32,000 nucleotides of DNA, taken from assembly GCF_029945895.1 (NCBI RefSeq), contig NZ_JAQSDL010000029.1, positions 28,260 through 60,259 on the forward strand, read 5' to 3'. Positions 1 through 32,000 of this stretch are shown here, one piece after another. The notes beneath the pieces are model-generated. The model was not told where the DNA came from and did not search any database. It saw only the letters and a program-made list of their open reading frames with translations. The DNA comes from Polaromonas sp. Lineage in GTDB: Bacteria; Pseudomonadota; Gammaproteobacteria; Burkholderiales; Burkholderiaceae_C. A program made the translations under genes and the position numbers. How positions within the stretch are numbered: position 1 is the first letter of the stretch; each line of letters starts with the position of its first letter.

Positions 1-1
1 G

Positions 2-8590: not shown

Positions 8591-8607
8591 AAAATCCGGT
8601 GACCGAT

Positions 8608-8625
8608 CCTGCCCGTCAGGGCAGG
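8608..8625. terminator. Hairpin CCTGCCC-GTCA-GGGCAGG between convergent genes
   Basis: Perfect 7-bp stem with 4-nt loop between stops at 8590 (+) and 8645 (-). No clear U-tract. Confidence 0.35.
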
Positions 8626-8644
8626 GGGTGGCGCACAACCAGCC

Positions 8645-10615: not shown

Positions 10616-10724
10616 GCCTGAATCCTATCCGAACGTCGTGTTGGAGTCCAGCGGCCCAGTCTCCGCGCATCGTTTCTTCTCCGTAACGCTACGCAGCCAG
10701 AAAGCACAGAAAGGCGGTCCATCC

Positions 10725-11396: not shown

Positions 11397-11473
11397 TTCC
11401 GCTTGCCGGGATTGCGCGCCAGCGGATGCGTCTTCCCTCTGCTCGGCAATACATTAAAAAGAGGAGACTGATC

Positions 11474-13111: not shown

Positions 13112-13137
13112 ACCAACCCCAACCCCTGAACCCTGTT

Positions 13138-14340
13138 ATGGCAAACATCAAATCCGCCCCCTCGACACATACGCTTCGGGGTAAAACAGCGATCATCGGC
13201 GCAGGCATTTCGGCCGTCGGCCGCGTGCCGGGCAAGAGCGCGCTCGCACTGGCCGCCGACGCGGCAGGCAAGGCGCTGGCCGACGCCGGCATCGGCAAGC
13301 ACCAGATCGATGGCGTGCTCTCAAGCTCCGCCTTTGCCTCTCCGTTCCACCGCTTCAGCGTGGCCTTCAGCGAGTACCTGGGCATCGAGCCCACGTTCTC
13401 CAACACGCTGCAGGTCTCGGGCGCCACCGCGGCGACCCTGTTCAACATCGCCGCCGCGGCCATCGCCGGCGGCCTGGCCGAGACCATTCTGGTGGTGGGC
13501 GGCGACAGCCTGCTGACCGGCCTGTCGCCCGACCTGGCCCTGCGCTCGATGACCGAAAGCCGGGATCAGCAATACGAAATGCCCTTCGGCATTCCGGTGG
13601 CCAACACCTTCGCCATGACCGCGCATCGGCACATGAAAGAGTTCGGCACCACGGCTGAGCAGTTCGCCCAGGTGGCGGTGATCCACCGCGACCATGCGCG
13701 GCGCACGCCGGGCGCGCAGATGACCGCGCCACTCACGGTCGACGACGTGCTGAACTCCGGCCTGGTGACAACCCCTTACCACAAGCTCGACTGCTCGCTC
13801 ATCTCCGACGGCGGCGCGGCCTTCATCGTCACCTCGTCCGAGCGCGCCAGGGCACTGGGCATTGCCAAGCCGATCTACATCCTGGGCGGCGGCGAATGCT
13901 ACACGCACGAGCACATCTTCCTGATGCCTTCGCTGACCACCACCGGCGCGGTGCAGTCGAGTGCCAAGGCCTACGCCATGGCCGGTTGCGGGCCGAAGGA
14001 CATCGATGTGGCCGGGGTCTATGACTGCTTCACCGGCACGGTGATCATGATGCTGGAGGACCTGGGCTTTTGCCCCAAGGGGGAAGGCGGGCGCTTCGTC
14101 CAGGACGGCCAGATCACCTACGGCGGCGCCATTCCCTGCAACACCCATGGCGGCCTGCTGTCGTTCGCGCACTCGGGCATGCCGGGGGCGCTGTTTCATT
14201 TCTACGAGGTCGTCAACCAGTTGCGCGGAAGCTGCGGTGAACGCCAGGTTGCGGGCGCTGAACTCGGCCTGGTGCACAGCCTGGGTGCGGGCTTCGCGAC
14301 CAACGCCACCACCATCCTGGGAACGGAGGCCGCGCTGTGA
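13138..14340 (+). CDS. Thiolase-superfamily protein, SCP-x/lipid-transfer type, lacking the nucleophilic Cys
   Basis: SCP2-thiolase-like motifs YDCFT and NTHGGLLSFAHSG. No Cys anywhere in the N-terminal ~200 aa; QVSGATAATLF occupies the position of the N-x-x-C-A-T-G nucleophile motif. Confidence 0.8.
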   Translation: MANIKSAPSTHTLRGKTAIIGAGISAVGRVPGKSALALAADAAGKALADAGIGKHQIDGVLSSSAFASPFHRFSVAFSEYLGIEPTFSNTLQVSGATAATLFNIAAAAIAGGLAETILVVGGDSLLTGLSPDLALRSMTESRDQQYEMPFGIPVANTFAMTAHRHMKEFGTTAEQFAQVAVIHRDHARRTPGAQMTAPLTVDDVLNSGLVTTPYHKLDCSLISDGGAAFIVTSSERARALGIAKPIYILGGGECYTHEHIFLMPSLTTTGAVQSSAKAYAMAGCGPKDIDVAGVYDCFTGTVIMMLEDLGFCPKGEGGRFVQDGQITYGGAIPCNTHGGLLSFAHSGMPGALFHFYEVVNQLRGSCGERQVAGAELGLVHSLGAGFATNATTILGTEAAL

Positions 14341-14768: not shown

Positions 14769-14805
14769 AACAGCGTCTTCGTGCGCCTTCTGAGTGTCTG
14801 AAGGC

Positions 14806-17529: not shown

Positions 17530-19170
17530 TTAGACCCCCGGCAGCCGGTGGTCCTTGAACTGCTCACGCAACTGGTTCTTCAGCATCTTGCCAGTGGCGC
17601 CGATGGGGATGGCCTCGACGAACACCACGTCGTCAGGCACCCACCAGGAGGCGACCTTGCCTTTGTAGTGTTCAATCAGCGCTTCGCGGGTGACCTCCGC
17701 GCCCGGCTTGCGCACTACCACCAGCAAGGGCCGTTCATCCCATTTCGGGTGCGGCACGGCGATGGCCGCTGCCATCGCCACCGCCGGGTGCGCCATGGCG
17801 ACGTTTTCCAGGTCGATCGAGCCGATCCACTCGCCGCCGGACTTGATCACGTCCTTGCTGCGATCCGTGATCTGCATGTAGCCGTCGGCGTCGATCGTGG
17901 CCACGTCGCCGGTGGGGAACCACTGCGCGCCGGTCGTGTCGCTCACCAGGGGTTTGGCGCCATCAGGGCCGAAGTAGCTCTGGACTACCCAAGGGCCACG
18001 CACCAGCAGATCGCCCGGCGTCTTGCCGTCCCAGGGGACGTCGGCCCCCTGCGGATCGACGATGCGCATGTCCACGCCGAACACGACCTTGCCTTGCTTG
18101 GCGAGCAGCGCATGCTGTTCGTCCAGTGGCAGGGACAGGTGTTTCTGCTTCAGCCGGCTGACCGTGCCCAGGGGCGACATCTCCGTCATGCCCCAGGCGT
18201 GGATGACTTCAATGCCATGGTTATCTTCAAAGGCTCGCATCATGCTTGGCGGCACGGCCGAGCCACCGATGATGGTGCGCTTCAAGGGGGCGAGGCTGAG
18301 CGCGTTCTGCTCGGCGTGCTGGAGCATGCCGAGCCAGATCGTGGGCACGCCGGCCGCAAACGACACCTGCTCGGTGGTAATCAGCTCGTGCAGCGACTTG
18401 CCGTCCAGCGCGGCCCCCGGCAGCACCAGCTTGGCGCCGACCATCGCGCAACTGTAGGGCAGGCCCCAGGCATTGGCGTGAAACATCGGCACCACCGGCA
18501 TCACGCAGTCGCGCGATGAGATGGAGATCGCGTCCGGCATGAGCGAGGCATAGGTGTGCAGCATCGTCGAGCGATGGCTGTAGAGAACGCCCTTGGGGTT
18601 GCCGGTGGTACCCGAGGTGTAGCACAGCGACGAGGCGGTGTTCTCGTCGAAAGTGGGCCATGCGAAGTCGGGCTTGTGCGCCGAGATCAGGTCTTCGTAG
18701 CACAGCAGATTGGACAACTTGCTCGCCGGCATCTTGTCCTTGTCGATCATCGCGACAAAGTGACGTACCGTCTTGCAGCGCCCCGCCACGGCCTCGACCA
18801 GGGGCAGGAAGGTCAGGTCAAAGAACAGCACCTGATCCTCGGCATGGTCGAGGATGTAGAGCAACTGGTCCGGGTGCAGGCGCGGGTTGAGGGTGTGCAG
18901 CACCGAACCGCTGCCGGAGGCGGCGAAATACAGTTCCAGGTGCCGGTAGCCGTTCCAGGCCAGCGTGGCGACGCGCTGCGAAGCTTTCACACCGAGATTG
19001 CCGAGCGCATGGGCCATCTGGCGCGCGCGGTCGTGCAATTGCGCATAGGTGATGCGGTGGATGTCGCCTTCGACGCGGCGCGAGACGATGGGCACATCGC
19101 CGCTATGGCGTGCCGCATGGGTGATGAGTGAGGAAATGAGCAGGGGGGCGCTCATCATTTGACCGTTCAT
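17530..19170 (-). CDS. Medium/long-chain fatty-acid--CoA ligase (AlkK-like)
   Basis: AAGGAG RBS precedes ATG 19170. [39 protein letters not shown]. Last gene of the minus-strand ALDH-GMC-ligase operon. Confidence 0.88.
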
Positions 19171-19279
19171 GAAGTCTCCTTGGATTTTTTGGTTAAGGCT
19201 AAATCCGGCCACTGGCCGGGTATCGTGATGAGAGGTGCCATAGCGCCTCTGCGGGGTGGTGACTTTTATGCGAATGAAT

Positions 19280-20878
19280 CTACTGAAGTTTGTGGCTTGA
19301 CAGGATGGCCCGCGCACACTTCTCGCCGATCACCATGCAAGGGGCATTGGTGTTGCCGCCGATAACCGTAGGCATGATCGATGCGTCGGCGACACGCAGG
19401 CCCGAAAGCCCGTGCACCCGCAACTGCGCATCGACCACGGCCATGTCGTCATTGCCCATCTTGCAACTGCCGACCGGGTGGTAAATGGTTTCCGCACTGC
19501 GCCGGATGTAGGCCCGCAGATCCTTGTCGCTGCGCACGCCGGCACCCGGCGCCACTTCGCCGCCATTGATGTCGTGGAAGGCCTTGGCCTCAAAGATGCG
19601 TCGTGCAAGTTTCAGGCCACGCAGCATCTCGTCCCAGTCGTCGGCATGGCTCAGGTAGTTGGGCTGAATCATCGGTGCGGCCAGCGGATCGGCGCTTTTG
19701 AGGCCGATGAAACCACGGCTTTGGGGGCGCAACTGGCACATGTGCAAGGTGGCGCCGTAGCCGGGGGCCAGGTCACGGCCATGGTTTCGCAGGTAGGTCG
19801 GCAGGAAGTGAAATTGCACCTCTGGCAGCGCCGATTGTGGCGAGAGCCTGGCGAAACCCCCTGTCTCGGCCACGTTGCTGGACAGGAAGCCTTCGCGCTT
19901 GCGCCAGTATTGCCAGAGCCCGGCAAGTGCTTTCGGCAGGAAACCAGGCGCGACACCAATCGCCTGCTTGCTGCGGTCGCGGATCATCACCGTCACGTCG
20001 AGATGGTCCTGCAGGTTCTGGCCCACGCCCTGCAGGTCGGCGACCAGGTCGATGCCCAGGCCCGTCAATTGCTGCCTGGGTCCGACACCCGACAGCAGCA
20101 GCAGCTGCGGTGAATTGATGGCGCCGCCGCTCAGCACGATTTCACGTTCGGCCTCGATGCGCTGGCGTTCGCCTTTGCGTTCGATCTCGACCCCCACGGC
20201 CTGTTTGCCCGAGAAGAGGATGCGTGTGACATGGGCACCGGTGAGCACGGTCAGGTTCGGCCGGTCCATGACAGGGTGCAGGAAGGCCCGAGCGCTGCTC
20301 CAGCGTTCCCCGTTCTTCTGGGTCACCTGGTGAGGCCCCGCACCTTCCTGTTGCGCGCCGTTGAAGTCCATGTTGCGCGGAATGCCGCATTGCACGGCGG
20401 CGTCGATGAAGCGGCTCGACAACGGGTTGGGCGAGCGTACATCGGCAACGTTCAGTGGTCCATTTGTTCTGTGGTAGGTCGAGACACCGCGCTCGTTATT
20501 CTCATGTTCCATAAAGATCGGCAGCAGATCCTTGTAGGCCCATCCGGCGTTTCCCGCTGCTGCCCATGCGTCGTAATCAGCCTGTTGCCCGCGCATGTAG
20601 ACCATGGCATTGATCGAGCTGCTACCCCCGATTGTTTTTCCCCGTGGCCAGTACAGGCGACGACCTTCGAGTTCGGCTTGTGGTTCGGTGTCGAAATACC
20701 AGTTGTACTTGCGGGTGGCGAGCAAGCCCACGAGGCCCATGGGCGTGCGGATCAGCGGTGAGTCGTCGGACCGTCCCGCTTCGAGCAGGCACACGCGGTT
20801 CGACGGATCCGCGCTCAATCGGTTGGCCAAGACACAGCCGGCCGAACCGGCGCCCACGATGATGTAATCGAATTTCAA
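19280..20878 (-). CDS. GMC-family FAD oxidoreductase (AlkJ / choline-dehydrogenase-like alcohol dehydrogenase)
   Basis: N-terminal FAD fold FDYIIVGAGSAGCVLANRLS, GMC signature GGSSSINAMVYMRG, C-terminal HPVGSCKMG. Confidence 0.9.
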   Translation of the reverse strand: MKFDYIIVGAGSAGCVLANRLSADPSNRVCLLEAGRSDDSPLIRTPMGLVGLLATRKYNWYFDTEPQAELEGRRLYWPRGKTIGGSSSINAMVYMRGQQADYDAWAAAGNAGWAYKDLLPIFMEHENNERGVSTYHRTNGPLNVADVRSPNPLSSRFIDAAVQCGIPRNMDFNGAQQEGAGPHQVTQKNGERWSSARAFLHPVMDRPNLTVLTGAHVTRILFSGKQAVGVEIERKGERQRIEAEREIVLSGGAINSPQLLLLSGVGPRQQLTGLGIDLVADLQGVGQNLQDHLDVTVMIRDRSKQAIGVAPGFLPKALAGLWQYWRKREGFLSSNVAETGGFARLSPQSALPEVQFHFLPTYLRNHGRDLAPGYGATLHMCQLRPQSRGFIGLKSADPLAAPMIQPNYLSHADDWDEMLRGLKLARRIFEAKAFHDINGGEVAPGAGVRSDKDLRAYIRRSAETIYHPVGSCKMGNDDMAVVDAQLRVHGLSGLRVADASIMPTVIGGNTNAPCMVIGEKCARAILSSHKLQ

Positions 20879-20944: not shown

Positions 20945-22396
20945 TCAGACCAGACGCAGCGTCCAGTTGATCAGCCGTCGCGACAGATGGGTGTAGGGCG
21001 GGTAGAAGGTGGAGGCCAGCAACAGCCAGGTCTTGACGACCGCGCGCTCATGGCTGAAGGCCTTGAACCCGTAGATCCCGTGTGCGCTGCCCAAGCCGGA
21101 GTTGTTGACACCGCCAAAGGGCAGGCGGCCATGCAGGAACTGCACGACGCTGTGGTTGACGCAGGCACCGCCCGAACTCGTCTCGCGCAGCACCTTGTCG
21201 GCGACCTTGTGGTTCTTCGTCCAGATGTACAGCGCGAGCGGCTTGGGCTGGTCGTTGATCTTGGTTATGACTTCGTCGAGATCGCGGTAAGCAATGACGG
21301 GCAGCAACGGGCCGAAAATTTCCTCCTGCATGATCTTTGCATCCGGGCTGACGTTGTCGATCAAGGAGGGCGCGACGAACTGGCGATCTGTCTGGTGCTG
21401 GCCACCGGCCAGCAGTCTGGCACCTTTTTCAAGTGCGTCATCCAGCAGTCCGACGATGCGCTTGGCATGGCGCTCATTGACGATGTGCGCCAGGTGAGGG
21501 CTGGTGCGCACGGCATCTCCTTCACCGTAGGCTTTGGCCAGGGCTTGGCGGCAGTGCTCTACAAAAACATCCTTGACCGATTCGTGGACGTAGACGTGAT
21601 CCGGCGCAATACAGGTCTGGCCGCTGTTGGTGCATTTGGACCACATCAGGTTGGCCGCCGCGGCCTTCAGGTCCGCCGTGGCGTCAACGATGGTGGGGCT
21701 CTTGCCGCCCAGCTCCAGGGTCACGCTGGTCAGGTGCTTGGCCGCCGCGGCCATCACCACGCGGCCAATCGCCGGCGAGCCGGTAAAGAAGATGTGATCG
21801 AAGGGCAGATCCAGCAGCGCCTGCGAGACCGACGCGTCGCCCTGGAACAGGGCCACCTCGTCTTCGGGAAACACCTCGCGCACGATCTCCGCCATCAGCG
21901 CCGACAGGTGGGGTGTCATCTCCGAGGGTTTGAGAATGGCCGTGTTGCCGGCGGCGATGGCCGAGATCAGTGGGCCGAAGGTCAGGTTGACGGGATAGTT
22001 CCACGGCGAGATGATCAGGCAGCGGCCCTTGGGCTCGCACTGCACGTAGCTTGACGTGCCAAACATCAGCAGGGTCGGGAAAACCTTGTTCGGCTTCATC
22101 CAGCGGCGCAGATGGCGACGCGCATCGTTGGCTTCGGCCACGATGGGTAAAATTTCGGTCAGGTCGACCTCGGCGGCCGGTTTGCCGAAGTCCAGTGCGC
22201 CAGCGCGCTGAATGTCGGCCTGGCGCGCCAGGACGGCCCGCTTCAGGCGGTCGATCTTGTCGAGCCGCTGCGCGGCGGTTGATTGACGAAGCCGTAAGGC
22301 CGTCTCACGCTGCGCGGCGAAGATGCGGTCTATTTCCGGTTGTCCCGCCGGTTCGTCGGGGTTGACAAGCCGCATGGCATTGGAAGTCACCTTCAT
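20945..22396 (-). CDS. Aldehyde dehydrogenase, class-3/AlkH/CalB-like
   Basis: AGGAGA RBS precedes ATG 22396. Catalytic motifs ELGGKSP and NSGQTCIAPDHVYV. Confidence 0.88.
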   Translation of the reverse strand: MKVTSNAMRLVNPDEPAGQPEIDRIFAAQRETALRLRQSTAAQRLDKIDRLKRAVLARQADIQRAGALDFGKPAAEVDLTEILPIVAEANDARRHLRRWMKPNKVFPTLLMFGTSSYVQCEPKGRCLIISPWNYPVNLTFGPLISAIAAGNTAILKPSEMTPHLSALMAEIVREVFPEDEVALFQGDASVSQALLDLPFDHIFFTGSPAIGRVVMAAAAKHLTSVTLELGGKSPTIVDATADLKAAAANLMWSKCTNSGQTCIAPDHVYVHESVKDVFVEHCRQALAKAYGEGDAVRTSPHLAHIVNERHAKRIVGLLDDALEKGARLLAGGQHQTDRQFVAPSLIDNVSPDAKIMQEEIFGPLLPVIAYRDLDEVITKINDQPKPLALYIWTKNHKVADKVLRETSSGGACVNHSVVQFLHGRLPFGGVNNSGLGSAHGIYGFKAFSHERAVVKTWLLLASTFYPPYTHLSRRLINWTLRLV

Positions 22397-22481
22397 TTCT
22401 GTCTCCTGCATTTTATTTTGGTCTCGTATCACGTCGATTCGAGGTCGAAGTAAGTCTATTGAGATGCGCCATGGAAATCAC

Positions 22482-22497
22482 CCTAACGAAAGTTAGG
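22482..22497. promoter_or_regulatory. Perfect palindrome CCTAAC-GAAA-GTTAGG in the divergent control region
   Basis: Read directly from the sequence. Sits between the ALDH start (22396) and the pmoC start. Candidate operator or RNA hairpin. Confidence 0.25.
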
Positions 22498-22536
22498 TGC
22501 AACGTCGTGTGCTTCGATCTACCATTCTTCGAGTGT

Positions 22537-22551
22537 TGGCGCAAAGCTGGC
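22537..22551 (+). promoter_or_regulatory. Sigma-54-like -24/-12 element TGGCGC-N5-TGGC upstream of pmoC
   Basis: Matches TGGCAC-N5-TTGC at the GG/GC core with correct spacing and 2 flanking mismatches. No enhancer-binding protein gene in the window, so this is weak. Confidence 0.2.
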
Positions 22552-22598
22552 CGAGCCTCTTTCTTGCAAGTGGGTGGAGGCTAAGTGATTACCCTTAA

Positions 22599-22616
22599 TT
22601 CACACGATTCACACGA
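22599..22616 (+). repeat. Tandem direct repeat TTCACACGA x2 abutting the pmoC ribosome-binding site
   Basis: Two exact 9-nt copies, followed directly by AGGAGA (22618-22623). Confidence 0.6.
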
Positions 22617-22630
22617 CAGGAGACATGACA

Positions 22631-23440
22631 ATGAAAACAGTTTCAATTCAAGGTGCCGGGGGCATGCGGGTAGCCGGCGGCGAGGGAAAATCCTCCCGGG
22701 AGAAAATAGGTGCTCCGTGGGCCAAATTCTTTTTGGCGCTGCTTGCGTTCGCGGTGCTCTATACCGGCTATCGCATCTACTCCGAGGCGTCGGCGTTCAC
22801 ATACGGGCTCGACTATTTCAGCCACGAGTTCGATGTTTACTGGATGCGTCTGCTGTACGGACAGTTGCTGCTGATTGGCGCGCTGGGAACCGGGGCTCTG
22901 GTGTATCTATGGCGTACCCGTGAGCGGGATTTTTCCCGGATCGGGCCACGAGAGGAGGTGCGGCGCCTGTTCGTGCTGATGGCGCTCATTTTGCTGTTCG
23001 CCATCATGTTTTATGTGACCGGTTCGATCTACACGGAGGCCGATGCAGCCTGGCACCAGGTGACGATCCGGGATACTGATTTCACCCCCACCCACATTGG
23101 TCTGTTTTATTTCTGCGTGCCCTTGCTGGTGTTTTGGGGCTTCATCTCGTTCGCCTACGCTCACACGCGCATCCCGCTCTTTGGCAATCGCATTTCGCTG
23201 CCGTTCGCGATCATCGTCGCCGGCGCTTTCATGATCATGCCCAATGTGGGATTCAACGAGTGGGGTCACACTTTCTTCTATGCAGAGGAGTTGTTCGCCG
23301 CGCCGATTCACTATGGCTTTGTGTTGCTGGGCTGGTCTACGTTTGCGGCTGGTGGATTGCTCCTGCAGATACTGGGTCGCGTGGCCGAGCTGACGAAGCA
23401 GTCGGTGTCGCCGCAAGCCGAGCTTCAAGCGGCTCACTGA
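22631..23440 (+). CDS. pmoC: Copper membrane monooxygenase subunit C (PmoC/AmoC family)
   Basis: EADAAWHQVTIRDTDFTPTH and NEWGHTFFYAEELFAAPIHYGF reproduce PmoC metal-ligand spacing (D-x3-H-x12-H and N-x3-H-x13-H). Multi-TM protein. ATG 22631 is 7 nt after AGGAGA; ATG 22625 is an alternative. Confidence 0.92.
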   Translation: MKTVSIQGAGGMRVAGGEGKSSREKIGAPWAKFFLALLAFAVLYTGYRIYSEASAFTYGLDYFSHEFDVYWMRLLYGQLLLIGALGTGALVYLWRTRERDFSRIGPREEVRRLFVLMALILLFAIMFYVTGSIYTEADAAWHQVTIRDTDFTPTHIGLFYFCVPLLVFWGFISFAYAHTRIPLFGNRISLPFAIIVAGAFMIMPNVGFNEWGHTFFYAEELFAAPIHYGFVLLGWSTFAAGGLLLQILGRVAELTKQSVSPQAELQAAH

Positions 23441-23526
23441 TACGCCTTTCCGGGTAAATGCATCGGGGCTAGGTCTCGATGACAAGCTGTGCGCTTGACC
23501 TCCCAATTTATTTCTGGAGACTTTGA

Positions 23527-24279
23527 ATGTCCGTTTTGACTCCGGCTGAGGCCGCCTTTAGCCCGCAGGAAGCGGCCCGCGTTGATGCCCAGGTTGACTG
23601 GGTGGTCATTCCGCTCTTTGTGGTGCTTCTGGGGTCCGTATTCGCCTTCCAGTTTGCCTTGCTGGTGGGGGACTGGGATTACTGGATCGATTGGCGGGAC
23701 CGCCGTTATTGGCCGCTGGTCACGCCCTTGGTGCTGGTTATTCTGCCCGGCGTATTTGGATATGCCTTTTGGCATTTGCTGCGCATACCTCTGGGTGCGA
23801 CGCTGAGCATTATCGGGTTGACGCTGACGGGCTGGTTGAGCCGGTACTTGAACTTTCATGAGTTCGCGGGTTTTCCGATGAACATGGTGCTGCCGTCGAC
23901 TTTCATTGGCGTGGGTCTACTGATCGATTGCACCTTGCTGCTTACGCGCAGCTGGTTTTTCACGGGGATTTTTGCTGGCTTTCTTTCGGGGCTGCTTCTG
24001 TACCCAATGAACTGGCCACTGCTGGCTCCGTTCATGGTGCCGGTCGAAATGCACGGCACGCTGATGACGGTGGCGGACGTGATGGGTTTTGAGTACATCC
24101 GCACTGCCATGCCCGAATATGTGCGCATCATCGAGCAGAGTACTTTGAGGACATTCGGCGATGCAGTCACACCGCTGACGGCGGTTTTTGCTGGCTTCCT
24201 GACCATATTGAGCCTCTGGTTCTGGGCCTGGGTTGGCTCACTCGGTGTCAAGGCCGTGTGGCTGCGAAAAGTTGTTTAA
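23527..24279 (+). CDS. pmoA: Copper membrane monooxygenase subunit A (PmoA/AmoA family)
   Basis: Hallmark strings GDWDYWIDWRDRRYWP, PMNMVLPSTFIG, YIRTAMPEYVRIIEQSTLRTFGD. GGAGA RBS. Confidence 0.93.
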   Translation: MSVLTPAEAAFSPQEAARVDAQVDWVVIPLFVVLLGSVFAFQFALLVGDWDYWIDWRDRRYWPLVTPLVLVILPGVFGYAFWHLLRIPLGATLSIIGLTLTGWLSRYLNFHEFAGFPMNMVLPSTFIGVGLLIDCTLLLTRSWFFTGIFAGFLSGLLLYPMNWPLLAPFMVPVEMHGTLMTVADVMGFEYIRTAMPEYVRIIEQSTLRTFGDAVTPLTAVFAGFLTILSLWFWAWVGSLGVKAVWLRKVV

Positions 24280-24289
24280 GGAAGAGGTC

Positions 24290-25531
24290 ATGAATTTCAT
24301 TGCAAAATTGTTCGCAGTCATTCAAGGCCTGATCGTCGTCCTGGTCACGTTTTCGGCAACGCCGACGTATGCCCATGGTGAAAAGGCTCAGCAACCCGCT
24401 TTGCGCATGCGCACCGTGCATTGGTTTGACGTGGATTTGTCGACGCGCAAGCTCGATGTCAACCAGATTCTGGTCGTCAAGGGAACTTTTGTTCCTTCCC
24501 TGTCCTGGCCGGAGCATGTCGCGTCCATCGAGGACACCGCCTATCTCAATGTGGGCGTACCCGGGCCTTCTTTTGTGCGCCTGGACAGCCGCGTCAACGG
24601 TGTGCCCACCATACGCAGTAGTTCGTATAAGCGCGGTGAGCAGTACAACTTCGAGATCACGCTGAAGGCCCGCACACCCGGCCGCTATCACCTGCATCCC
24701 ATCATCAACGTCCAGGATGCCGGGCCGATGATTGGGCCCGGCATCTGGGTCGAGGTCGGGGGCGACCCGGCGGCATTTGACAACAGCATCAAAACCTTGT
24801 TCGGCCAAACCCTTGATTTGGAAACGCACGGCTTTGCCAATGCGGCTTCCTGGTCAGCGGTGTGGGTTGTGCTTGGTTTGGTCTGGTTTGGCTATTGGCT
24901 GACCAAGGTGCCTTTGATCTTGCCGAGGTTCCGGCGTGCCAGCGCGCTGGGTGAGAACGCCGACGACATGATCACCACGCGCGACCGTCAGGCGGCACTG
25001 GTTATCCTGGTGGCTACGCTGATGCTTATCGCTGGCGGGTTTTTCTATGCCACCGAGCGCTGGCCGGTCACGACGCCGCTACAGACCGGCAAGATCAAGA
25101 CGCCGCCCCTGAAGATGGCGCCTTCGCCGGTGTTGGTCACGATGGATGATGCACGCTACCGCATCCCGGGCCGGAGCTTCCGTATCGAGCTCACGGTAAC
25201 CAACAGCGGGAAGAGTCCCGTGAGCGTTGGTGAGTTTGCCTCAGGCGGCCTGCGCTTTATCAATTCCGCGGTGCTGAAGGTCACACCAAAAGACCAGGAC
25301 GATCTGGTCGCGACAGACGCGTTGCGCGTGGAGGGCGGCTCGATCAATCCAGGAGAAACGAAGAAGATCGTGGTCTATGCGGACGATGCGATGTGGGAGA
25401 CGCAGCGCATGACGACGATGATCTCCTCCCCGGATGCGGTGGTGGCCGGCATGCTGTTCTTCTTCGATGCGCAGGGCCGTCGCTATCCAGTAGAGATCAG
25501 CGGACCGATGATCCCTTTGTTCGGGGGGTAA
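24290..25531 (+). CDS. pmoB: Copper membrane monooxygenase subunit B (PmoB/AmoB family)
   Basis: Signal peptide ending TYA|HGEKAQQPALRMRTVHWFD (N-terminal His after cleavage), GRYHLHPIINV HxH motif, two central TM helices, C-terminal cupredoxin-like domain. Confidence 0.92.
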   Translation: MNFIAKLFAVIQGLIVVLVTFSATPTYAHGEKAQQPALRMRTVHWFDVDLSTRKLDVNQILVVKGTFVPSLSWPEHVASIEDTAYLNVGVPGPSFVRLDSRVNGVPTIRSSSYKRGEQYNFEITLKARTPGRYHLHPIINVQDAGPMIGPGIWVEVGGDPAAFDNSIKTLFGQTLDLETHGFANAASWSAVWVVLGLVWFGYWLTKVPLILPRFRRASALGENADDMITTRDRQAALVILVATLMLIAGGFFYATERWPVTTPLQTGKIKTPPLKMAPSPVLVTMDDARYRIPGRSFRIELTVTNSGKSPVSVGEFASGGLRFINSAVLKVTPKDQDDLVATDALRVEGGSINPGETKKIVVYADDAMWETQRMTTMISSPDAVVAGMLFFFDAQGRRYPVEISGPMIPLFGG

Positions 25532-26142
25532 TGGAGATGCGACTGATCCGAACGTTGAGTTCCGCGCTGCTGGCCGTGGCTGCGGTATCGGCATGGGCCC
25601 ATGGCGGGGTCGGCATTGAAGACGACAAGTGCATCCTGCGCATCGGCAGCGACCGGGCCCATTTCGCCGGCTACCAGCCCGAGCACCGTGCCAGTCAGGA
25701 GTTCTGCGAGGACATCCCCGAAGTCGGACGGGCAGTGATCGTGATTGACTTCATCCAGCCCGCGCTGCGCGAACGCGTGGTCGAGTTCCGCATCCTGCGT
25801 GACGCGGACGGGCTGGGTGCCAAGGCGCGCTACGAGGATCTTGGTGACACGGACCAAATCGCGCAGCGGACGATGGTGGCGCTGCCGGCCAAGGTTTATC
25901 CGCGCGGCACGGTCACCCTGGACCACAAGTTCAGCGAGCCCGGCTGGTACATCGGCCTGCTCAGCGCGACCGACCCGGCCAGCGGGAAGACGGAGACCTC
26001 GGTCTTTCCGTTCCGCGTCGGCGTGCGCAACTATTGGAAATACCTGCCATTGCCCTTGTTCTTTATCGGCATGGCCTGGCTCTTGTACCGGCTTACCAGA
26101 CAGCGGCGAAAACCCCCGATCACCGACGTACCTCAAAAGTAG
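25531..26142 (+). CDS. Exported, C-terminally membrane-anchored protein coupled to pmoB (candidate PmoD/AmoD-like accessory protein)
   Basis: ATG overlaps the pmoB stop (TAATG). Signal peptide ...AVSAWA|HGG. About 150-aa periplasmic domain with C34/H44/H52/C59. TM helix YLPLPLFFIGMAWLLY followed by RQRRK. Family assignment not verified. Confidence 0.7.
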   Translation: MEMRLIRTLSSALLAVAAVSAWAHGGVGIEDDKCILRIGSDRAHFAGYQPEHRASQEFCEDIPEVGRAVIVIDFIQPALRERVVEFRILRDADGLGAKARYEDLGDTDQIAQRTMVALPAKVYPRGTVTLDHKFSEPGWYIGLLSATDPASGKTETSVFPFRVGVRNYWKYLPLPLFFIGMAWLLYRLTRQRRKPPITDVPQK

Positions 26143-26165
26143 ACAGCATGAAAAAAGGAGACAAG

Positions 26166-28331
26166 ATGAAAATTTGGATGAACATGGCGGGTAACGCGCG
26201 TCAAGAAAAAACCGCCAACCGACCTGCAATGGCCCTGACATTGGCGGTGGTTTCGCTGCTGGTGATGGCCGCGCCGCCCGTCATGGCCGAGGAGGCCAAG
26301 GGCTCGAAGGCGCACATTGCGGCCGTGACCAGGAAAGTCGACGGCGCCTTCATCCGTGCCAATGAGGCGCGAACGAACGACTGGCCCAGCCACGGCCTGG
26401 ACTATGCCGAGACCCGCTTCAGCAAGCTCCAGCAGATCCATACCGCCAACGTCAAGGATCTCGGCTTGGTCTGGTCCTACAACCTCGAGTCGACGCGCGG
26501 CGTCGAGGCCACGCCGCTGGTGGTGGACGGCGTCATGTATGTCAGCGCCTCCTGGAGCATCGTCCATGCCATTGACGTGCGCAGCGGCAAGAAGATCTGG
26601 ACCTTCGATCCCAAGGTGCCGCGCGAGGCCGCTTACAAGGGCTGCTGTGACGTGGTCAACCGCGGCGTGGCGCTGTATCAGGGCAAGGTCTTCGTCGCCT
26701 CCTACGACGGCCGGCTGATCGCGCTCGATGCGGCCACCGGCAACAAGGTCTGGGAAAAAGACACCATCATCGACCGCAAGTTCAGCTACACGATCACCGG
26801 GGCGCCACGCGTGTTCAAGGGCAAGGTGATCATCGGCAACGGCGGCGCCGAGTACGGCGTGCGCGGCTACATCACGGCCTATGATGCCGCCACCGGCGAC
26901 CAGAAATGGCGCTGGTTCACGGTACCCGGCGACCCGAGCAAACCGTTCGAGGACGAGTCCATGGCCAAGGCCGCCAAGACCTGGGACCCCGCGGGCAAGT
27001 ACTGGGAAGCCGGCGGTGGTGGCACCGCCTGGGACACGCTGACCTTCGATCCCAAACTGAACCTGATGTACGTGGGCGTCGGCAACGGTTCACCCTGGGC
27101 GGCAGCCAAGCGCAGCCCCGCGGGCGGCGATAACCTGTACCTGGGGTCCATCGTCGCGCTCAACCCCGACACCGGCAAGTACGTCTGGCACTACCAGGAA
27201 ACACCCGGCGACAACTGGGACTACACCTCGACCCAGCCGATGATCCTGGCCGACCTGAAGATAGCGGGCAAGCCACGCAAGGTGATCCTGCATGCGCCGA
27301 AGAACGGTTTCTTCTTCGTGATCGACCGCACCAACGGCAAGTTCATCTCGGCGAAGAACTTCGTCGACGTGAACTGGGCCAGCGGCTACGACGCGACGGG
27401 TCGCCCCATCGAGACTGCCGATGCGCGTCCCACGGATCGACCGTACGATGCCATTCCAGGCCCCTACGGCGCGCACAACTGGCACTCCATGTCGTTCAAT
27501 CCACGGACCGGGCTGGTCTACTTGCCTGCGCAAAACATACCCGTCAACATGATGGATGACAAGAACTGGAGCTTCAACTCCAACAAGCCAGGTCAGCCAG
27601 GCTCCGGTACCGGTTGGAATACCGGCAATTACATCAATGCAGTCCCACCAAAAAGCAAGCCGTTTGGCCGACTGATTGCCTGGGATCCGGTACAGCAAAA
27701 AGAAGCATGGCGCCAGGAACAGGTCTCACCGTGGAATGGTGGCACGCTGACCACGGCCGGTAACCTCGTGTTTCAGGGCACGGCGGACGGGCGTTTCATC
27801 GCCTACAACGCCCAAAATGGCGAGAAACTCTGGGAGTCGCCCACGGGGACCGGCGTGGTGGCTGCGCCTATCACCTATCTGGTGGATGGCAAGCAGTACG
27901 TGTCGATTGCCGTGGGATGGGGCGGCAGTTACGGTCAGGATAAGCGGGCCACCGAGCGGCAAGGTCCGGGCACGGTCTACACCTTTGCCGTTGGCGGCAA
28001 AGCGCCCATGCCGGACTTCGTCGCTTACCGGATGGGCGAACTGGTGGCAGGGGTGAAATACGACCCGGCTCACTACGAGGCCGGCACCTTGCTGTATGTC
28101 AGCAATTGCGTTCTCTGCCATGGTGTTCCCGGCGTGGACCGTGGCGGCAACATCCCCAACCTCGGTTACATGAACGCGGCCTTCATCGAAAACCTCGACA
28201 AGTTCATCTTCAAAGGTCCCGCCATGAGCCGGGGCATGCCTGACTTCACGGGCAAGCTGAGCGTGGACGATGTGGAGAAGATCAAGGCCTTCATCCAGGG
28301 AACGGCAGACGCGATACGTCCCAAGAAATGA
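26166..28331 (+). CDS. Quinohemoprotein PQQ-dependent alcohol dehydrogenase (type II ADH with C-terminal cytochrome c)
   Basis: AAGGAG RBS 5 nt before ATG 26166. Signal peptide, vicinal disulfide GCCDVVNRG, propeller W-motifs, WDYT active-site segment, heme motif CVLCH (28107-28121). Starts at most 23 nt after the preceding stop. Confidence 0.9.
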   Translation: MKIWMNMAGNARQEKTANRPAMALTLAVVSLLVMAAPPVMAEEAKGSKAHIAAVTRKVDGAFIRANEARTNDWPSHGLDYAETRFSKLQQIHTANVKDLGLVWSYNLESTRGVEATPLVVDGVMYVSASWSIVHAIDVRSGKKIWTFDPKVPREAAYKGCCDVVNRGVALYQGKVFVASYDGRLIALDAATGNKVWEKDTIIDRKFSYTITGAPRVFKGKVIIGNGGAEYGVRGYITAYDAATGDQKWRWFTVPGDPSKPFEDESMAKAAKTWDPAGKYWEAGGGGTAWDTLTFDPKLNLMYVGVGNGSPWAAAKRSPAGGDNLYLGSIVALNPDTGKYVWHYQETPGDNWDYTSTQPMILADLKIAGKPRKVILHAPKNGFFFVIDRTNGKFISAKNFVDVNWASGYDATGRPIETADARPTDRPYDAIPGPYGAHNWHSMSFNPRTGLVYLPAQNIPVNMMDDKNWSFNSNKPGQPGSGTGWNTGNYINAVPPKSKPFGRLIAWDPVQQKEAWRQEQVSPWNGGTLTTAGNLVFQGTADGRFIAYNAQNGEKLWESPTGTGVVAAPITYLVDGKQYVSIAVGWGGSYGQDKRATERQGPGTVYTFAVGGKAPMPDFVAYRMGELVAGVKYDPAHYEAGTLLYVSNCVLCHGVPGVDRGGNIPNLGYMNAAFIENLDKFIFKGPAMSRGMPDFTGKLSVDDVEKIKAFIQGTADAIRPKK

Positions 28332-28477
28332 CCGATATATGACCGATGGCGCGAAGGAGTGCGCCGGGGAGTTGTGCGCGGCTGCCTGCCGTGCAGCCGG
28401 CGACGGGCCGACGGTTCTTGCAGGGCTTCGCGCCCGGTCGGCCAGATTCTATGGCTTACGGATATGAGGAAAAAACC

Positions 28478-28951
28478 ATGCAATCGAAAAAAGTTTCCGC
28501 TGTCTGTATCGCGGTCCTGATGGGTGCGCTGGCGGGACCCGTCGCCTTGGCGACCGAGCACGCGCACGCCGCATCCAAGAGCGGCGCGGCGAAGGACATG
28601 AAGGTACTGCCGCCGCTGCGCATCGTGTCGCCGCTTGCCGGGGCGCAGGTCGGGCCCAACATTGAGGTCGAGTTCGAGACCGATGCGGAGCTGGCGAACA
28701 TGACGATGAGCGCCAAGTCCATTGGCGTTCATCTGCATGTCGGTATCGACGGTACGTCTCTGATGCCGATGATGGCGGACTTGGTCCGCGTGGGCAAGAA
28801 TCGTTACCGCTACGCCTTTGACCTGCCCGCAGCCCCTGGGCCGCGCGTCATTAGCGTGTACTGGTCCGATGCATCCCACAAGACCATCGAATTTTCGGTA
28901 CAGAAGGTGAGTGTGGTGGTCGTTTCGAATCAGGGTAAGGTCAAACCTTGA
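28478..28951 (+). CDS. Exported His/Met-rich protein (DUF4399-like; candidate periplasmic copper binder)
   Basis: Signal peptide ...PVALA|TEHAHAAS. LRIVSPLAGAQVGPNIEVEF...IGVHLHVGIDGTSLMPMM resembles the DUF4399 pattern from memory. Function unproven. Confidence 0.65.
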   Translation: MQSKKVSAVCIAVLMGALAGPVALATEHAHAASKSGAAKDMKVLPPLRIVSPLAGAQVGPNIEVEFETDAELANMTMSAKSIGVHLHVGIDGTSLMPMMADLVRVGKNRYRYAFDLPAAPGPRVISVYWSDASHKTIEFSVQKVSVVVVSNQGKVKP

Positions 28952-28998
28952 ACGTACAGTCAAGTCGTCCTTGATGCCAATGAATAGAAGTGCAAGCA

Positions 28999-29015
28999 GC
29001 TATTGAAGTAATAGC
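28999..29015. promoter_or_regulatory. Inverted repeat GCTATT-N5-AATAGC upstream of the DUF2147/copCD genes
   Basis: Read from the sequence, about 50 bp upstream of ATG 29068 in an AT-richer spacer. Confidence 0.15.
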
Positions 29016-29067: not shown

Positions 29068-29523
29068 ATGACAATCGGAAAGACATTGAAACACGTACTC
29101 GCCATCGCCTCCTTTGCCTGGGCAGCCGGTCCTGCTTTTGCGCAGGACACGCCCGTCGGGCTCTGGAAGACGATTGACGACGACGGCAAGACGGTGAAAA
29201 CCTTGATTCGCATCAGCGAATCGGCTGGCGTGCTCAGTGGCGTGATCGAGAAACTCCTCGATCCCAAGGCGGCGACCGTCTGCACGAAATGCACCGACGA
29301 CCGCAAGGACAAGCCGGTGGTCGGGATGACGATTATTCGCGGCATCAAACACAATACCGCTGACGCTGCGCTGTGGGACGGCGGCGAGGTGCTCGATCCG
29401 GAGAATGGGTCGACCTACCGGCTGCGTCTGCGGCCCGCCGACGGGGGCAAGAAACTCGAGGTTCGAGGTTTCATCGGCGTGCCGATGATAGGGCGCTCGC
29501 AAACCTGGGTGCGCGCCGAGTGA
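29068..29523 (+). CDS. DUF2147 domain exported protein
   Basis: Signal peptide ...GPAFA|QDTPVGLWKTIDDDGK, CTKC pair, KDKPVVGM, W-GG-VLDPENGSTY, LEVRGF...GRSQTWVR. This is the typical DUF2147 layout. Confidence 0.8.
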   Translation: MTIGKTLKHVLAIASFAWAAGPAFAQDTPVGLWKTIDDDGKTVKTLIRISESAGVLSGVIEKLLDPKAATVCTKCTDDRKDKPVVGMTIIRGIKHNTADAALWDGGEVLDPENGSTYRLRLRPADGGKKLEVRGFIGVPMIGRSQTWVRAE

Positions 29524-29537
29524 ACGCCCGGCGCAAG

Positions 29538-29906
29538 ATGGTTTCGTGGCTCGTCGCGCTGCTGGCCATGGCCGCCACTGGCACGGCGCTGGCGCATGCC
29601 GCGCTGGTCAAGTCCGAACCGGCACGGCGGGCGACGCTGTCCAAACCGCCGCCGCAGGTCAGGCTGTGGTTCAACGAGCGGCTGGAGCCCGAGTACGCGA
29701 CGATCAGCGTGATCAGGGAAGGTGCCGGCCCGGTCACGACCCAGAAGGCCCGGGTTGACAAGGACGACCCCAAACTGCTGGCGCTGGAATTGCCCATGCT
29801 CAGCCCGGGTACCTATACCGTGAAATACCGGGTGCTCTCGGTCGATGGCCATACGGTCGATTACGGTTATACCTTCACCGTGAAGGCCGAGGGCGCCGGG
29901 AAGTAA
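29538..29906 (+). CDS. copC: CopC periplasmic copper-binding protein, Cu(II)-site-only type
   Basis: Signal peptide ...GTALA|HAALVKSEP (mature N-terminal His), D-x-H (SVDGHTV) near the C-terminus, no Met-rich Cu(I) loop. Confidence 0.88.
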   Translation: MVSWLVALLAMAATGTALAHAALVKSEPARRATLSKPPPQVRLWFNERLEPEYATISVIREGAGPVTTQKARVDKDDPKLLALELPMLSPGTYTVKYRVLSVDGHTVDYGYTFTVKAEGAGK

Positions 29907-32000
29907 ATGGAATTCCTCGGCACGGCGCTGCGCTGGCTGCAATTGACCAGCGGCCTGGTGCTGTTGGGCAGCTTTGCCCTGCTGCTGCTCGCGGGTCCTG
30001 GCCGAAGCCCGGATGCCGCGCGCTGGCGTGGCGCGGTCTTTGCCGCCGCGCCATGGCTGGTGGCACTGCTGCTGGCCACGGCGGCAGGTCTGTTGATGTT
30101 GCAGGCGGCTTCGGTCAGCGGCCGCGGCGAGGCGGCCTTTGAGTGGTCCGAATGGGTCAGGCTGCTGGAGCGAACGCGCTACGGCGCGGTCTGGCAGGTG
30201 CGGCAGGCGGCAGCGCTGGTTCTGCTGCTGTTGTTGCTGAGCCGAGGGCCTCTGAGCGCGCGGTTCGGCGAGCGCGTCGTCTGTGTGGCGCTGCTCACCC
30301 TGGCGCTGGGAATCAACGCGGCCTCGGTATTTACCGGGCACGGCGCTGCCACAGAACCGCTTTGGCTCGCAGGTGCCGGCCATGCGGTGCATTTGCTGGC
30401 GGCGGGCGCTTGGGCCGGAGGGTTGCCGGCGCTGGCCTACGGACTTCACCTGGCGGCAAGAGGCCGGGATCCGCCGTTCCGGCAGATGTTCCTCGGCGTG
30501 TTGCGCCGCTTCTCTGTGCTTGCGACGGTTTGCGTTGCTCTCATCGCTGCATCCGGCACCCTCATCGCGTACCTGCAGTTCGGCGCGCCGATCCGCTGGC
30601 CCGCACGGACAGACGACATCTTCGGCGGTCTGATGACGGTGCTCGAACGCAGCCTGGCCCCGCTGCTCAGTACATCGTTCGGTCTGCAGGTGTTGGCCAA
30701 AATGGTTCTGCTGGTGCCGGTGCTGCTTGTTGCAGCGCGGGTTCGCTGGGTCTGGATGCCGCGTATGGGCAAGGTGGCATTTGAGCAGGGTCTTGCGTGG
30801 CAAGGCGCGGCCGGTCTGGTCCGGGTGGAACTGGGCGTTGTGCTGCTGATCCTGCTCTTCGCAGCCGGTCTGACAGGTACGCTGCCCGCGGCCCATGCGC
30901 AGATGGTGTGGCCGCTGCCGTTTCGTCTGTCGCTCGCGGCCACCTGGGACAAACCGGGGGGGGTGAACACGGTCGTGGGTGCGTCGTTGCTGGCTATGGG
31001 CGGACTGGCTTGGCTGGTGCATGCCCTTGTGTCAGGGCCCCGCGCCGACGCGGCGCAGGGCGGGCGCCGGATCCGTTTGGGTGCTGCCGTGCTGATGACC
31101 CTCTCGGGGCTGGTCATCGTTCTATACGCGCTCTCGGTGGACGCCTATCCCGACACCTATCGGCGCACGGATGTCAGTTACAACGCGGTGTCGGTCACGC
31201 GCGGGGCGGCGCTGTATTCCCAGCACTGCGTGTCCTGTCACGGTCCGGGTGGCAAGGGGGACGGTCCGCTGGCCACCCGCTTGCCCACCAGGCCCGCCGA
31301 CCTCACCGAGCCGCATACCGCGTTGCACACGGCGGGCGATCTCTTTTGGTGGCTCACCCACGGCAAGCCGAACACCGCCATGCCCGGCTTTGCGCAGGAA
31401 ATGACCGAGGAGGAACGCTGGGACATGGTGAACTTCCTGCGCGCCTTCTCCGCCGGTTTTCAGGCCCGCATCCTGACACCGCAGGTGGTGCCCGGGCGGC
31501 CCTGGCTCGGTCCGCCCGATTTCGATTTTGTGACCCGGTCGGGACTGGCCGCGGCGCTCAAGGCGTACAGGGAGCGCAAGTCCGTGCTGCTGGTCTTCTA
31601 CTCGCAGCCCTTCTCGGCGCAACGCCTGGCCGAACTGGCGCGTGTCTATCCGCGCCTGAAATCCAGCGGCGCCGAGGTGATCGCCATTGCGTTGCCAGGC
31701 ACCCCGCCCTTGCAATCGCAGCCGTTCCCCGTTGTCACCGATGGGGCGCAGGAGGCGGCGACCGCCTACCTGCTGTTGCGGCGCACCTTGAGCGACCCCG
31801 GCAAGACCATCCTGGGGGAAGCTCCGTCTCACATGGAATTCCTGCTCGACCGGTTCGGCTATGTGCGAGCGCGCTGGCTGCCGCAGGACGAGGAGGGCGC
31901 CGGTGAAGGTTGGCGCGACACGCAGTTTCTGCTCGACCAAATCGAACGCATCCACCGCGAGCCGCGCATCCTGCCGCCGCCCGATGATCATGTGCATTGA
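29907..32000 (+). CDS. copD: CopD-family membrane protein fused to a cytochrome c domain and a Cys-less peroxiredoxin/thioredoxin-like domain
   Basis: ATG immediately follows the copC TAA. N-terminal multi-TM CopD region, CVSCH heme motif (31227-31241) with AMPGF Met ligand, C-terminal AhpC/TSA-like pattern KSVLLVFYSQPFSAQR...GAEVIAIAL with no Cys. Stop at 31998-32000. Confidence 0.85.
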   Translation: MEFLGTALRWLQLTSGLVLLGSFALLLLAGPGRSPDAARWRGAVFAAAPWLVALLLATAAGLLMLQAASVSGRGEAAFEWSEWVRLLERTRYGAVWQVRQAAALVLLLLLLSRGPLSARFGERVVCVALLTLALGINAASVFTGHGAATEPLWLAGAGHAVHLLAAGAWAGGLPALAYGLHLAARGRDPPFRQMFLGVLRRFSVLATVCVALIAASGTLIAYLQFGAPIRWPARTDDIFGGLMTVLERSLAPLLSTSFGLQVLAKMVLLVPVLLVAARVRWVWMPRMGKVAFEQGLAWQGAAGLVRVELGVVLLILLFAAGLTGTLPAAHAQMVWPLPFRLSLAATWDKPGGVNTVVGASLLAMGGLAWLVHALVSGPRADAAQGGRRIRLGAAVLMTLSGLVIVLYALSVDAYPDTYRRTDVSYNAVSVTRGAALYSQHCVSCHGPGGKGDGPLATRLPTRPADLTEPHTALHTAGDLFWWLTHGKPNTAMPGFAQEMTEEERWDMVNFLRAFSAGFQARILTPQVVPGRPWLGPPDFDFVTRSGLAAALKAYRERKSVLLVFYSQPFSAQRLAELARVYPRLKSSGAEVIAIALPGTPPLQSQPFPVVTDGAQEAATAYLLLRRTLSDPGKTILGEAPSHMEFLLDRFGYVRARWLPQDEEGAGEGWRDTQFLLDQIERIHREPRILPPPDDHVH

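Follow-up and report, generated by a model that had tools for sequence, protein, structure and literature searches.

A copper membrane monooxygenase operon, xmoCABD, in a probable alkane-oxidation gene cluster of Polaromonas

What does a complete copper membrane monooxygenase (CuMMO) operon do in a bacterium outside the methanotrophs and nitrifiers? The question is raised by a 32,000-nucleotide stretch of DNA from Polaromonas sp. (contig NZ_JAQSDL010000029.1, positions 28,260–60,259; hereafter the window, to which all coordinates refer), in which three adjacent genes, xmoC, xmoA and xmoB, encode the CuMMO subunits. CuMMOs beyond methanotrophs and nitrifiers are biochemically uncharacterised, and they matter for the turnover of natural-gas alkanes and for cometabolic bioremediation. 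A preliminary description of the sequence had proposed a hydrocarbon-oxidising role, and this is still the best reading: the region is probably the central part of a gene cluster for alkane oxidation in the Polaromonas chromosome, with a C2–C4 alkane as the most probable substrate.

The genes xmoC (22625–23440), xmoA (23527–24279) and xmoB (24290–25531) lie on the forward strand in the order C-A-B, with the coordinates originally given for them. Profile searches were made with Pfam and NCBIfam, and the three products matched the Pfam models AmoC (E-value 3.5e-73, 246 bits), AMO (6e-76, 256 bits) and Monooxygenase_B (1.6e-123, 413 bits), all above the curated gathering scores of 26.7, 27.5 and 22.7. 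When compared with PDB chains using phmmer, all three retrieved particulate methane monooxygenase (pMMO) and ammonia monooxygenase (AMO) chains among the solved structures, with E-values of ∼1e-61 for XmoC against PmoC, with the ligands aligned, 2e-62 for XmoA against PmoA and 3.9e-105 for XmoB against PmoB. The two XmoA strings quoted earlier as family hallmarks both occur in the translation. A longer, TTG-extended open reading frame (ORF) of xmoB begins at 24233.

The copper ligands of the Methylococcus capsulatus enzyme were found in the Polaromonas proteins. In XmoC, D140/H144/H157 paired with CuC ligands D156/H160/H173 (numbering of 1yew_C), and N211/H215/H229 shared alignment columns with the CuD N/H/H ligands. 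In XmoB, H29, H134 and H136 paired with H33, H137 and H139 of the CuB site, and H44 with H48 of the bis-His site, the partner of which (H72) is missing, all as first described; its position holds Val. XmoB carries a signal peptide, and since the solved mature PmoB chain starts with HGEK, aligning at XmoB H29, cleavage would by homology expose H29 as the mature N-terminus. A set of 65 related loci was fetched, among them six of Comamonadaceae type (L001–L006), two from Burkholderiales metagenome-assembled genomes (MAGs; L007 and L008) and one from Aquabacterium (L018). The DHH and NHH pattern was kept in every one of the 64 aligned XmoC sequences, M. capsulatus included, and none of the 65 aligned XmoB sequences departed from the three histidines of CuB. 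The proposed XmoC alignment stands, but its numbering from the ATG at 22625 probably does not. This codon is AAG in two Comamonadaceae-type loci (L002 and L004), while the ATG at 22631 sits 7 nt past a conserved AGGAGA and agrees with a separate gene call of 269 aa, so that the ligands are probably D138/H142/H155 and N209/H213/H227, two positions lower.

Selection on the genes was also evident. The ratio of nonsynonymous to synonymous substitution rates (dN/dS), computed against four Comamonadaceae orthologues from Rhodoferax, Acidovorax, Hydrogenophaga and Polaromonas, was 0.05–0.19 for the xmo genes, and the four of them (xmoD is described below) are thus under strong purifying selection. 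The xmoCAB genes are real, intact CuMMO genes. By analogy with pMMO, their products would form an (XmoCAB)3 enzyme with CuB in XmoB and CuC and CuD in XmoC.

Given these similarities, the enzyme could be a true pMMO or AMO with methane or ammonia as its physiological substrate. Its best matches among solved structures are pMMO and AMO, all copper ligands are identical, XmoB scored 527 against the NCBIfam AmoB_BACT equivalog cut-off of 336 and is named ‘bacterial ammonia monooxygenase subunit AmoB’ at NCBI, and CuMMOs are promiscuous. XmoB was alone in passing such a cut-off. XmoC fell below AmoC_BACT (276.7 vs 319) and TIGR03078 (236.4 vs 280.6), and XmoA below the AmoA and CH4_NH3mon_ox equivalogs (262.1 vs 290 and 256.9 vs 318). 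XmoCAB was only 40–44% identical to M. capsulatus pMMO and to the pxmABC copy of Methylomagnum, and was placed outside both in a neighbour-joining tree of concatenated C, A and B subunits (850 columns, Kimura distances, 100 bootstraps). Neither a methanol dehydrogenase of the mxaF/xoxF type nor hao or cycAB was found in Pfam and NCBIfam scans of the 32-kb window, as had been noted before; yet a pyrroloquinoline quinone (PQQ) alcohol dehydrogenase, the sole PQQ enzyme of the window, adjoins the operon and is of the ethanol-type quinohaemoprotein kind. The host genus is heterotrophic, and bacteria carrying related xmoA genes reportedly did not assimilate methane. Methane or ammonia is therefore a most improbable physiological substrate.

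The same tree, which was built without AMO, alphaproteobacterial pMMO, Haliea emoCAB and Nocardioides bmoCAB sequences, showed where the operon does belong. The window fell inside a Comamonadaceae clade with 100% support, the sister group of which (100%) was formed by the two Burkholderiales MAGs. Both lay within a group supported at 96% that also holds Nevskiales, including Solimonas aquatica, and Aquabacterium; Pseudomonadales MAGs branched next, and a large Porticoccaceae/Cellvibrionales clade further out. The operon did not cluster with the actinobacterial HMO and BMO, with Mycolicibacterium NBB4 hmoCAB and Rhodococcus ZPP (27–38% identity) in the position of an outgroup.

The host is Polaromonas, by taxonomy neither methanotroph nor nitrifier, as first stated, and the combination of a Comamonadaceae host with the gene order xmoC-A-B-D is that of the betaproteobacterial alkane-associated xmoCABD. 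The study that introduced these operons reportedly found them in single-cell genomes of Polaromonas and Rhodoferax obtained from an oil-sands tailings pond. It is said to have shown that bacteria with these xmoA genes take up carbon from ethane and propane, though not from methane, and that propane induces xmoA transcription. The window DNA was 97.7–99.2% identical to scaffold_7 of Polaromonas (eurypsychrophila) sp. AER18D-145. In RefSeq, XmoB and qhADH (see below) occur with identical sequence under ‘unclassified Polaromonas’, in a cluster that includes Polaromonas sp. AET17H-212, and for XmoA the NCBI proteins with 100% identity bear the names Hydrogenophaga sp. MAG and unclassified Polaromonas. 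XmoB was 87% identical to a Rhodoferax genome copy and fell into one cluster, at ≥90% identity, with EWS66134 of Hydrogenophaga sp. T4. This last organism has been cited, via Rochman et al. (2020), as carrying a monooxygenase known or predicted for gaseous hydrocarbons (PMC9213486), Polaromonas, Rhodoferax and S. aquatica CuMMOs have been listed elsewhere (PMC8630023), and a 2026 survey tabulated pmo/amo-type operons in groundwater MAGs of Burkholderiales, Pseudomonadales and Nevskiales. Literature searches for a later characterisation of Polaromonas or Burkholderiales CuMMOs returned lists and surveys only. Judged by sequence similarity, the operon is probably a further member of the described betaproteobacterial alkane-associated lineage, linked to it indirectly through the XmoB cluster of Hydrogenophaga sp. 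T4. The earlier suggestion of an uncharacterised lineage holds for the enzyme, which is biochemically uncharacterised, and not for the lineage, which is probably not new; nesting in a characterised clade of known host, named in the preliminary description as a ground for rejection, is largely what is seen.

The genes that surround xmoCAB point to the fate of its product. First comes xmoD (25531–26142, forward strand), and 23 bp past it, on the same strand, begins a gene for a type II quinohaemoprotein (PQQ and haem c) alcohol dehydrogenase of 721 aa (qhADH; 26166–28331), which appears to belong to the same transcription unit as xmoCABD. The protein matched Pfam PQQ and Cytochrome_CBB3 and the methanol/ethanol family TIGR03075 of NCBIfam (682 vs a cut-off of 480). 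Along its whole length it showed ∼80% identity with the quinohaemoprotein ethanol dehydrogenase 1kb0 of Comamonas testosteroni (residues 46–720, 1257 bits) and also matched 1kv9 and 1yiq. The similarity to the solved enzymes spanned the C-terminal haem c domain, as in type II enzymes, and a CxxCH motif (CVLCH) was seen in the alignment. Its position was conserved in five of the six Comamonadaceae-type loci (L001–L005).

Three genes of catabolism are divergently encoded on the reverse strand. Nearest to xmoC is an NAD(P)-dependent aldehyde dehydrogenase (20945–22432; Pfam Aldedh, 7.1e-104; 483 aa in a separate gene call), homologues of which were also divergent from xmoC in several Nevskiales loci (60% identity) and in Aquabacterium (72%). 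It is followed by a GMC flavoprotein oxidoreductase of the choline/alcohol dehydrogenase subfamily (19280–20878; GMC_oxred_N 1.3e-58, GMC_oxred_C 3.9e-42; NCBIfam PRK02106, 643 vs a cut-off of 605), the subfamily to which AlkJ belongs; the gene was syntenic in L001–L006, and the Aquabacterium copy (L018) was 75% identical. The third encodes a short/medium-chain acyl-CoA ligase of the DmdB, or 3-(methylthio)propionyl-CoA ligase, type (17530–19317; AMP-binding 7.1e-77; NCBIfam PRK07008, 971.9 bits vs a cut-off of 822), which was 89–99% conserved at the same position in L001–L006 and the true start of which probably lies downstream of 19280. Beyond it, on the forward strand, lies a gene for an 895-aa MalT/LuxR-family regulator (14794–17481) with a STAND ATPase domain, MalT tetratricopeptide repeats and a GerE helix-turn-helix (Pfam AAA_16, TPR_MalT 3.3e-34, GerE 4.1e-16), which scored 2.8e-52 with the NCBIfam MalT model, under its cut-off.

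This layout is not a peculiarity of one genome. Synteny was assessed by tblastn of the window proteins against the 65 loci, and the full arrangement, with ligase, GMC and aldehyde dehydrogenase genes divergent from xmoCABD and qhADH, recurred in the six Comamonadaceae-type loci, from genomes labelled Polaromonas, Rhodoferax, Hydrogenophaga and Acidovorax, followed by orf157, a DUF2147 gene, copC and copD where the contig reached far enough. In the two Burkholderiales MAGs (Xmo proteins 68–76% identical), a MalT/LuxR homologue (52–53%) stood directly upstream of xmoC, a 50% identical PQQ alcohol dehydrogenase downstream, and orf157-copC-copD nearby. In Nevskiales and Aquabacterium loci (60–70% identical), xmoD-copC-copD-orf157 was kept, often together with the divergent aldehyde dehydrogenase (60–72%). 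In gene content, the neighbours and the xmo genes form a conserved putative alkane-to-acyl-CoA module across the Comamonadaceae. The preliminary description had passed over xmoD, qhADH, copC and copD and the whole divergent set when it read the surroundings as ordinary acyl-CoA metabolism.

In the proposed pathway, XmoCAB would draw on O2 and on reductant from the membrane for the hydroxylation of a small hydrophobic molecule, in all probability a C2–C4 n-alkane. The alcohol would be oxidised in the periplasm by the probably co-transcribed qhADH, by the divergently encoded GMC flavoprotein, or by both, the aldehyde would be converted to the acid by the aldehyde dehydrogenase, and the acid would be activated by the DmdB-type ligase. 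Copper may be supplied or maintained by XmoD, CopC and a CopD-cytochrome c-thioredoxin fusion, possibly with orf157, and expression is probably governed by the adjacent MalT/LuxR regulator. Gene identities, conserved ligands, synteny, purifying selection, tree position and host are observed; the substrate, the path of electrons, copper delivery, regulation and the extent of the operon are inferred.

Several points weigh against this pathway and its substrate. There is no pure-culture experimental substrate assignment for XmoCAB or for any close relative. The qhADH, GMC, aldehyde dehydrogenase and ligase families are all broad in substrate range, and for this reason the neighbours do not fix a chain length. 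Among the genera labelled by 13C-propane at gas seeps Hydrogenophaga dominated, a point in favour of the pathway, but in that study the Hydrogenophaga MAGs were discussed for soluble di-iron monooxygenases and not shown to use a CuMMO. The genome announcement of AER18D-145 reports no hydrocarbon phenotype, and the Polaromonas, Rhodoferax and Solimonas CuMMOs are given as of ‘unknown function’ in PMC8630023.

The native substrate might then be another small hydrophobic compound than an n-alkane, such as an alkene (ethylene, as in Haliea) or a ketone (acetone, as for PMO3 of Methylacidiphilum). Sequence cannot give the substrate, ethylene- and acetone-linked members exist in the CuMMO family, and broad-range alcohol and aldehyde dehydrogenases would suit several products. 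Against this, scans of the window showed no genes for the handling of epoxides (coenzyme M pathway or epoxide hydrolase), the conserved alcohol dehydrogenase, aldehyde dehydrogenase and acyl-CoA ligase are the partners expected after terminal hydroxylation of an alkane, and the title and citations in the literature link the betaproteobacterial clade to alkane users. A substrate of this other kind is accordingly unlikely, and a C2–C4 alkane remains the preferred one.

The region between the aldehyde dehydrogenase gene and xmoC holds a candidate operator, the perfect palindrome CCTAAC-GAAA-GTTAGG (22482–22497, without strand), of which the window has one copy with 0 expected by chance. In the alignment of the six Comamonadaceae loci it was invariant between variable flanks. 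Exact copies were found in 6 of the 65 loci, all of Comamonadaceae type, and it was absent from the Nevskiales and other loci. The palindrome is possibly an operator for the MalT/LuxR protein, which is itself a candidate regulator of the cluster, or else an RNA hairpin with a GAAA loop. Scans of 22300–29000 for sigma-70 promoter-like and terminator-like sequences gave no excess over shuffled sequence and no site between genes. A sigma-54-like GG-N10-GC spacing is visible by eye near 22545, and was set aside, since the regulator next to the cluster does not belong to the enhancer-binding proteins.

The cluster may also have moved between lineages. The xmoCAB genes had a GC content at third codon positions of 0.71–0.75, vs 0.76–0.88 for their neighbours, and close relatives occur in a different order, the Nevskiales, which together suggest lateral transfer at some point. 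Within the region 23527–28331, DNA identity to the Polaromonas MAG locus L003 was 97–98% for xmoA and xmoB and only 84% for the adjoining qhADH, the protein of which was 100% identical to that of AER18D-145 by tblastn; this mosaic of identity suggests recombination inside the cluster among Comamonadaceae. It could be argued from the same base composition, distribution and mosaic segments that the operon is a laterally acquired passenger, capable of fortuitous co-oxidation only and without a catabolic role. In such a passenger one would hardly expect all four xmo genes to be under strong purifying selection, the multi-gene context to be conserved across genera and the upstream palindrome to be kept, and we consider it highly improbable beside a catabolic role in alkane oxidation.

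Variation was also seen in the xmoC-xmoA spacer (23441–23526), which differed between loci. In Polaromonas AER18D-145 the spacer (L001, 9060–9176) has an insertion of ∼116 bp with repeated TCCGGGTAAATGCATCGGGGCT-like sequence at its flanks, and that of Hydrogenophaga MAG_35 (L005) has an unrelated insertion of ∼160 bp. Both insertions are absent from the window, and they may represent a small mobile or repeat element.

How the enzyme would obtain its copper is suggested by xmoD and by the genes past qhADH. The ATG of xmoD overlaps the xmoB stop by 1 nt, as read from the sequence, and its product matched PmoD (PDB 6cpd) at 1.3e-19. XmoD has the features of the PmoD/AmoD family as set out by Fisher et al. 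(2018), namely two conserved cysteines (C34 and C59), a hydrophobic N-terminus that forms a signal peptide and a transmembrane helix at the C-terminus (YLPLPLFFIGMAWLLYRL), and the gene followed xmoB in almost every related locus, down to 38% identity by tblastn. The CuA site of PmoD is formed only with the motif Cx7MxHxnC (Fisher et al., 2018). XmoD has Cx7RxHxnC, with both invariant cysteines and the histidine kept and an arginine where the CuA-forming Met49 lies, and the same position was R, K, T, Q or S in all XmoD homologues recovered from related non-methanotroph loci. A purple CuA dimer like that of Methylocystis PmoD is probably not formed by the XmoD of this clade.

Downstream of qhADH, also on the forward strand, orf157 (28478–28951) encodes an unannotated periplasmic protein of 157 aa with a signal peptide, a predicted Ig-like fold and MTM, HLH, D, MP and H columns that do not vary, and its relatives have a His-rich mature N-terminus. 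It had no match in Pfam, NCBIfam or PDB sequences, and the family is rare: a search of 1.84 billion gave 176 representatives, of which 72 reached E ≤ 1e-10. An AlphaFold2 model gave an Ig-like beta-sandwich with core pLDDT above 90, which matched only generic Ig-like and sulfite-oxidase C-terminal sandwiches, with CopC at rank 35, so that no specific fold was assigned. One relative (P0220) is a CopC-orf157 fusion, and in Comamonadaceae, in Nevskiales and in MAGs of Burkholderiales and Pseudomonadales orf157 accompanied copC and copD beside xmoCABD. The protein is a candidate new periplasmic copper protein or copper-handling accessory.

Three further forward-strand genes close the window. A DUF2147 protein (29068–29523; Pfam 2e-28; gene call of 151 aa) is followed by the periplasmic copper-binding protein CopC (29520–29906; 1.9e-23), the gene of which is kept beside xmoCABD in Burkholderiales and Nevskiales loci. 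The last (29907–32000) encodes a fusion of CopD with a cytochrome c domain and a thioredoxin-like domain of the AhpC/TSA type (CopD 1.1e-08, Cytochrom_C 1.5e-14, AhpC-TSA 2.8e-05), a product of 697 aa in agreement with a separate gene call. The fusion, and the occurrence of homologues (40–51%) adjoining xmoCABD in Burkholderiales and Nevskiales loci, suggest redox-coupled copper import.

The lack of the CuA methionine in XmoD and the features of orf157 are the sole potentially new material here, and they are peripheral to the main finding. Two further readings are tentative and, taken together, rather doubtful: that XmoD without the CuA methionine, orf157 and the CopD fusion, a conserved accessory set unlike the one of methanotrophs, make up a distinct copper-loading or electron-delivery module of CuMMOs in non-methanotrophs, in which orf157 would be a new copper protein of the periplasm; and that the native substrate of the clade is not a C2–C4 alkane.

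The rest of the window is of a different character, and here the earlier reading as ordinary acyl-CoA metabolism was appropriate. Positions 1–14340 encode, in order, the C-terminal biotinyl end of an acyl-CoA carboxylase alpha subunit, a metallo-beta-lactamase-fold protein, an enoyl-CoA hydratase and a beta-carbonic anhydrase, then two acyl-CoA dehydrogenase-like ORFs, the first without a match to the C-terminal domain, and then a LysR regulator, a LigB-type extradiol dioxygenase, two AMP-binding ligases, a nitroreductase and a thiolase-like protein. Scans for Rfam families and tRNAs gave no hits anywhere in the window.

Nothing in the window is new in kind. It shows a betaproteobacterial xmoCABD within a complete, conserved alkane-to-acyl-CoA and copper-handling cluster, near-identical copies of which exist in cultured isolates, for example P. 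eurypsychrophila AER18D-145. The original xmoCABD work is said to have relied on single-cell genomes, which are unsuited to growth and knockout tests. Because cultured carriers exist, namely AER18D-145, Hydrogenophaga sp. T4, S. aquatica and Panacagrimonas perspica, the questions of substrate and of the copper module are directly testable.

Among known systems, the alk system of Pseudomonas putida GPo1 (AlkB, AlkJ/H/K/S) follows a similar logic, with a GMC alcohol dehydrogenase, an aldehyde dehydrogenase, an acyl-CoA synthetase and a MalT/LuxR regulator beside the hydroxylase. Its hydroxylase is an unrelated di-iron membrane enzyme, and the likeness is one of analogy in gene family and order. 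PQQ alcohol dehydrogenases serve butane oxidation in Thauera butanivorans, an architecture that appears parallel to that of the window. The actinobacterial hmoCAB of Mycolicibacterium chubuense NBB4 and the CuMMO of Rhodococcus sp. ZPP, both linked to C2–C4 alkanes, resemble the window as non-methanotroph enzymes with the order C-A-B, a nearby AMP-binding ligase and the PmoC ligands kept. They differ in their low identity and outgroup position, in being plasmid-borne and in having A or L at the equivalent of H48, and tblastn detected no PmoD homologue at the NBB4 or ZPP locus.

The pMMO of M. capsulatus Bath (PDB 1yew, 3rgb and 7s4h) shares with the window enzyme its three subunits, identical CuB, CuC and CuD ligands and an N-terminal histidine after signal cleavage, and pmo operons are also known with a copper accessory neighbourhood of the PmoD/CopCD type (Fisher et al., 2018). 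The window proteins were 41–44% identical to this enzyme, with H72 changed to Val and XmoD lacking the CuA methionine, and have an ethanol-type qhADH nearby instead of a methanol dehydrogenase or C1 genes. Closer are the CuMMOs of Nevskiales (S. aquatica DSM 25927, P. perspica, Nevskia and Stagnimonas) and Aquabacterium CECT 9606, which form the sister group in the tree (96% bootstrap, 60–70% identity) and share with the window the downstream genes xmoD, copC, copD and orf157 and, in many cases, the divergent aldehyde dehydrogenase. They lack an in-operon qhADH, a DmdB-type ligase and the palindrome, with GMC found only in Aquabacterium; the Nevskiales belong to a different bacterial order, and the literature lists the function of their CuMMOs as unknown. 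Closest of all is the betaproteobacterial xmoCABD (Rochman et al., 2020, ISME J 14:714), which is like the window in host family, in genus (Polaromonas), in the order C-A-B-D and in its proposed role in C2–C3 alkane oxidation, and from which the window differs in that its nearest genome is that of a cultured isolate, AER18D-145, obtained on R2A from uranium tailings and announced without mention of the operon.

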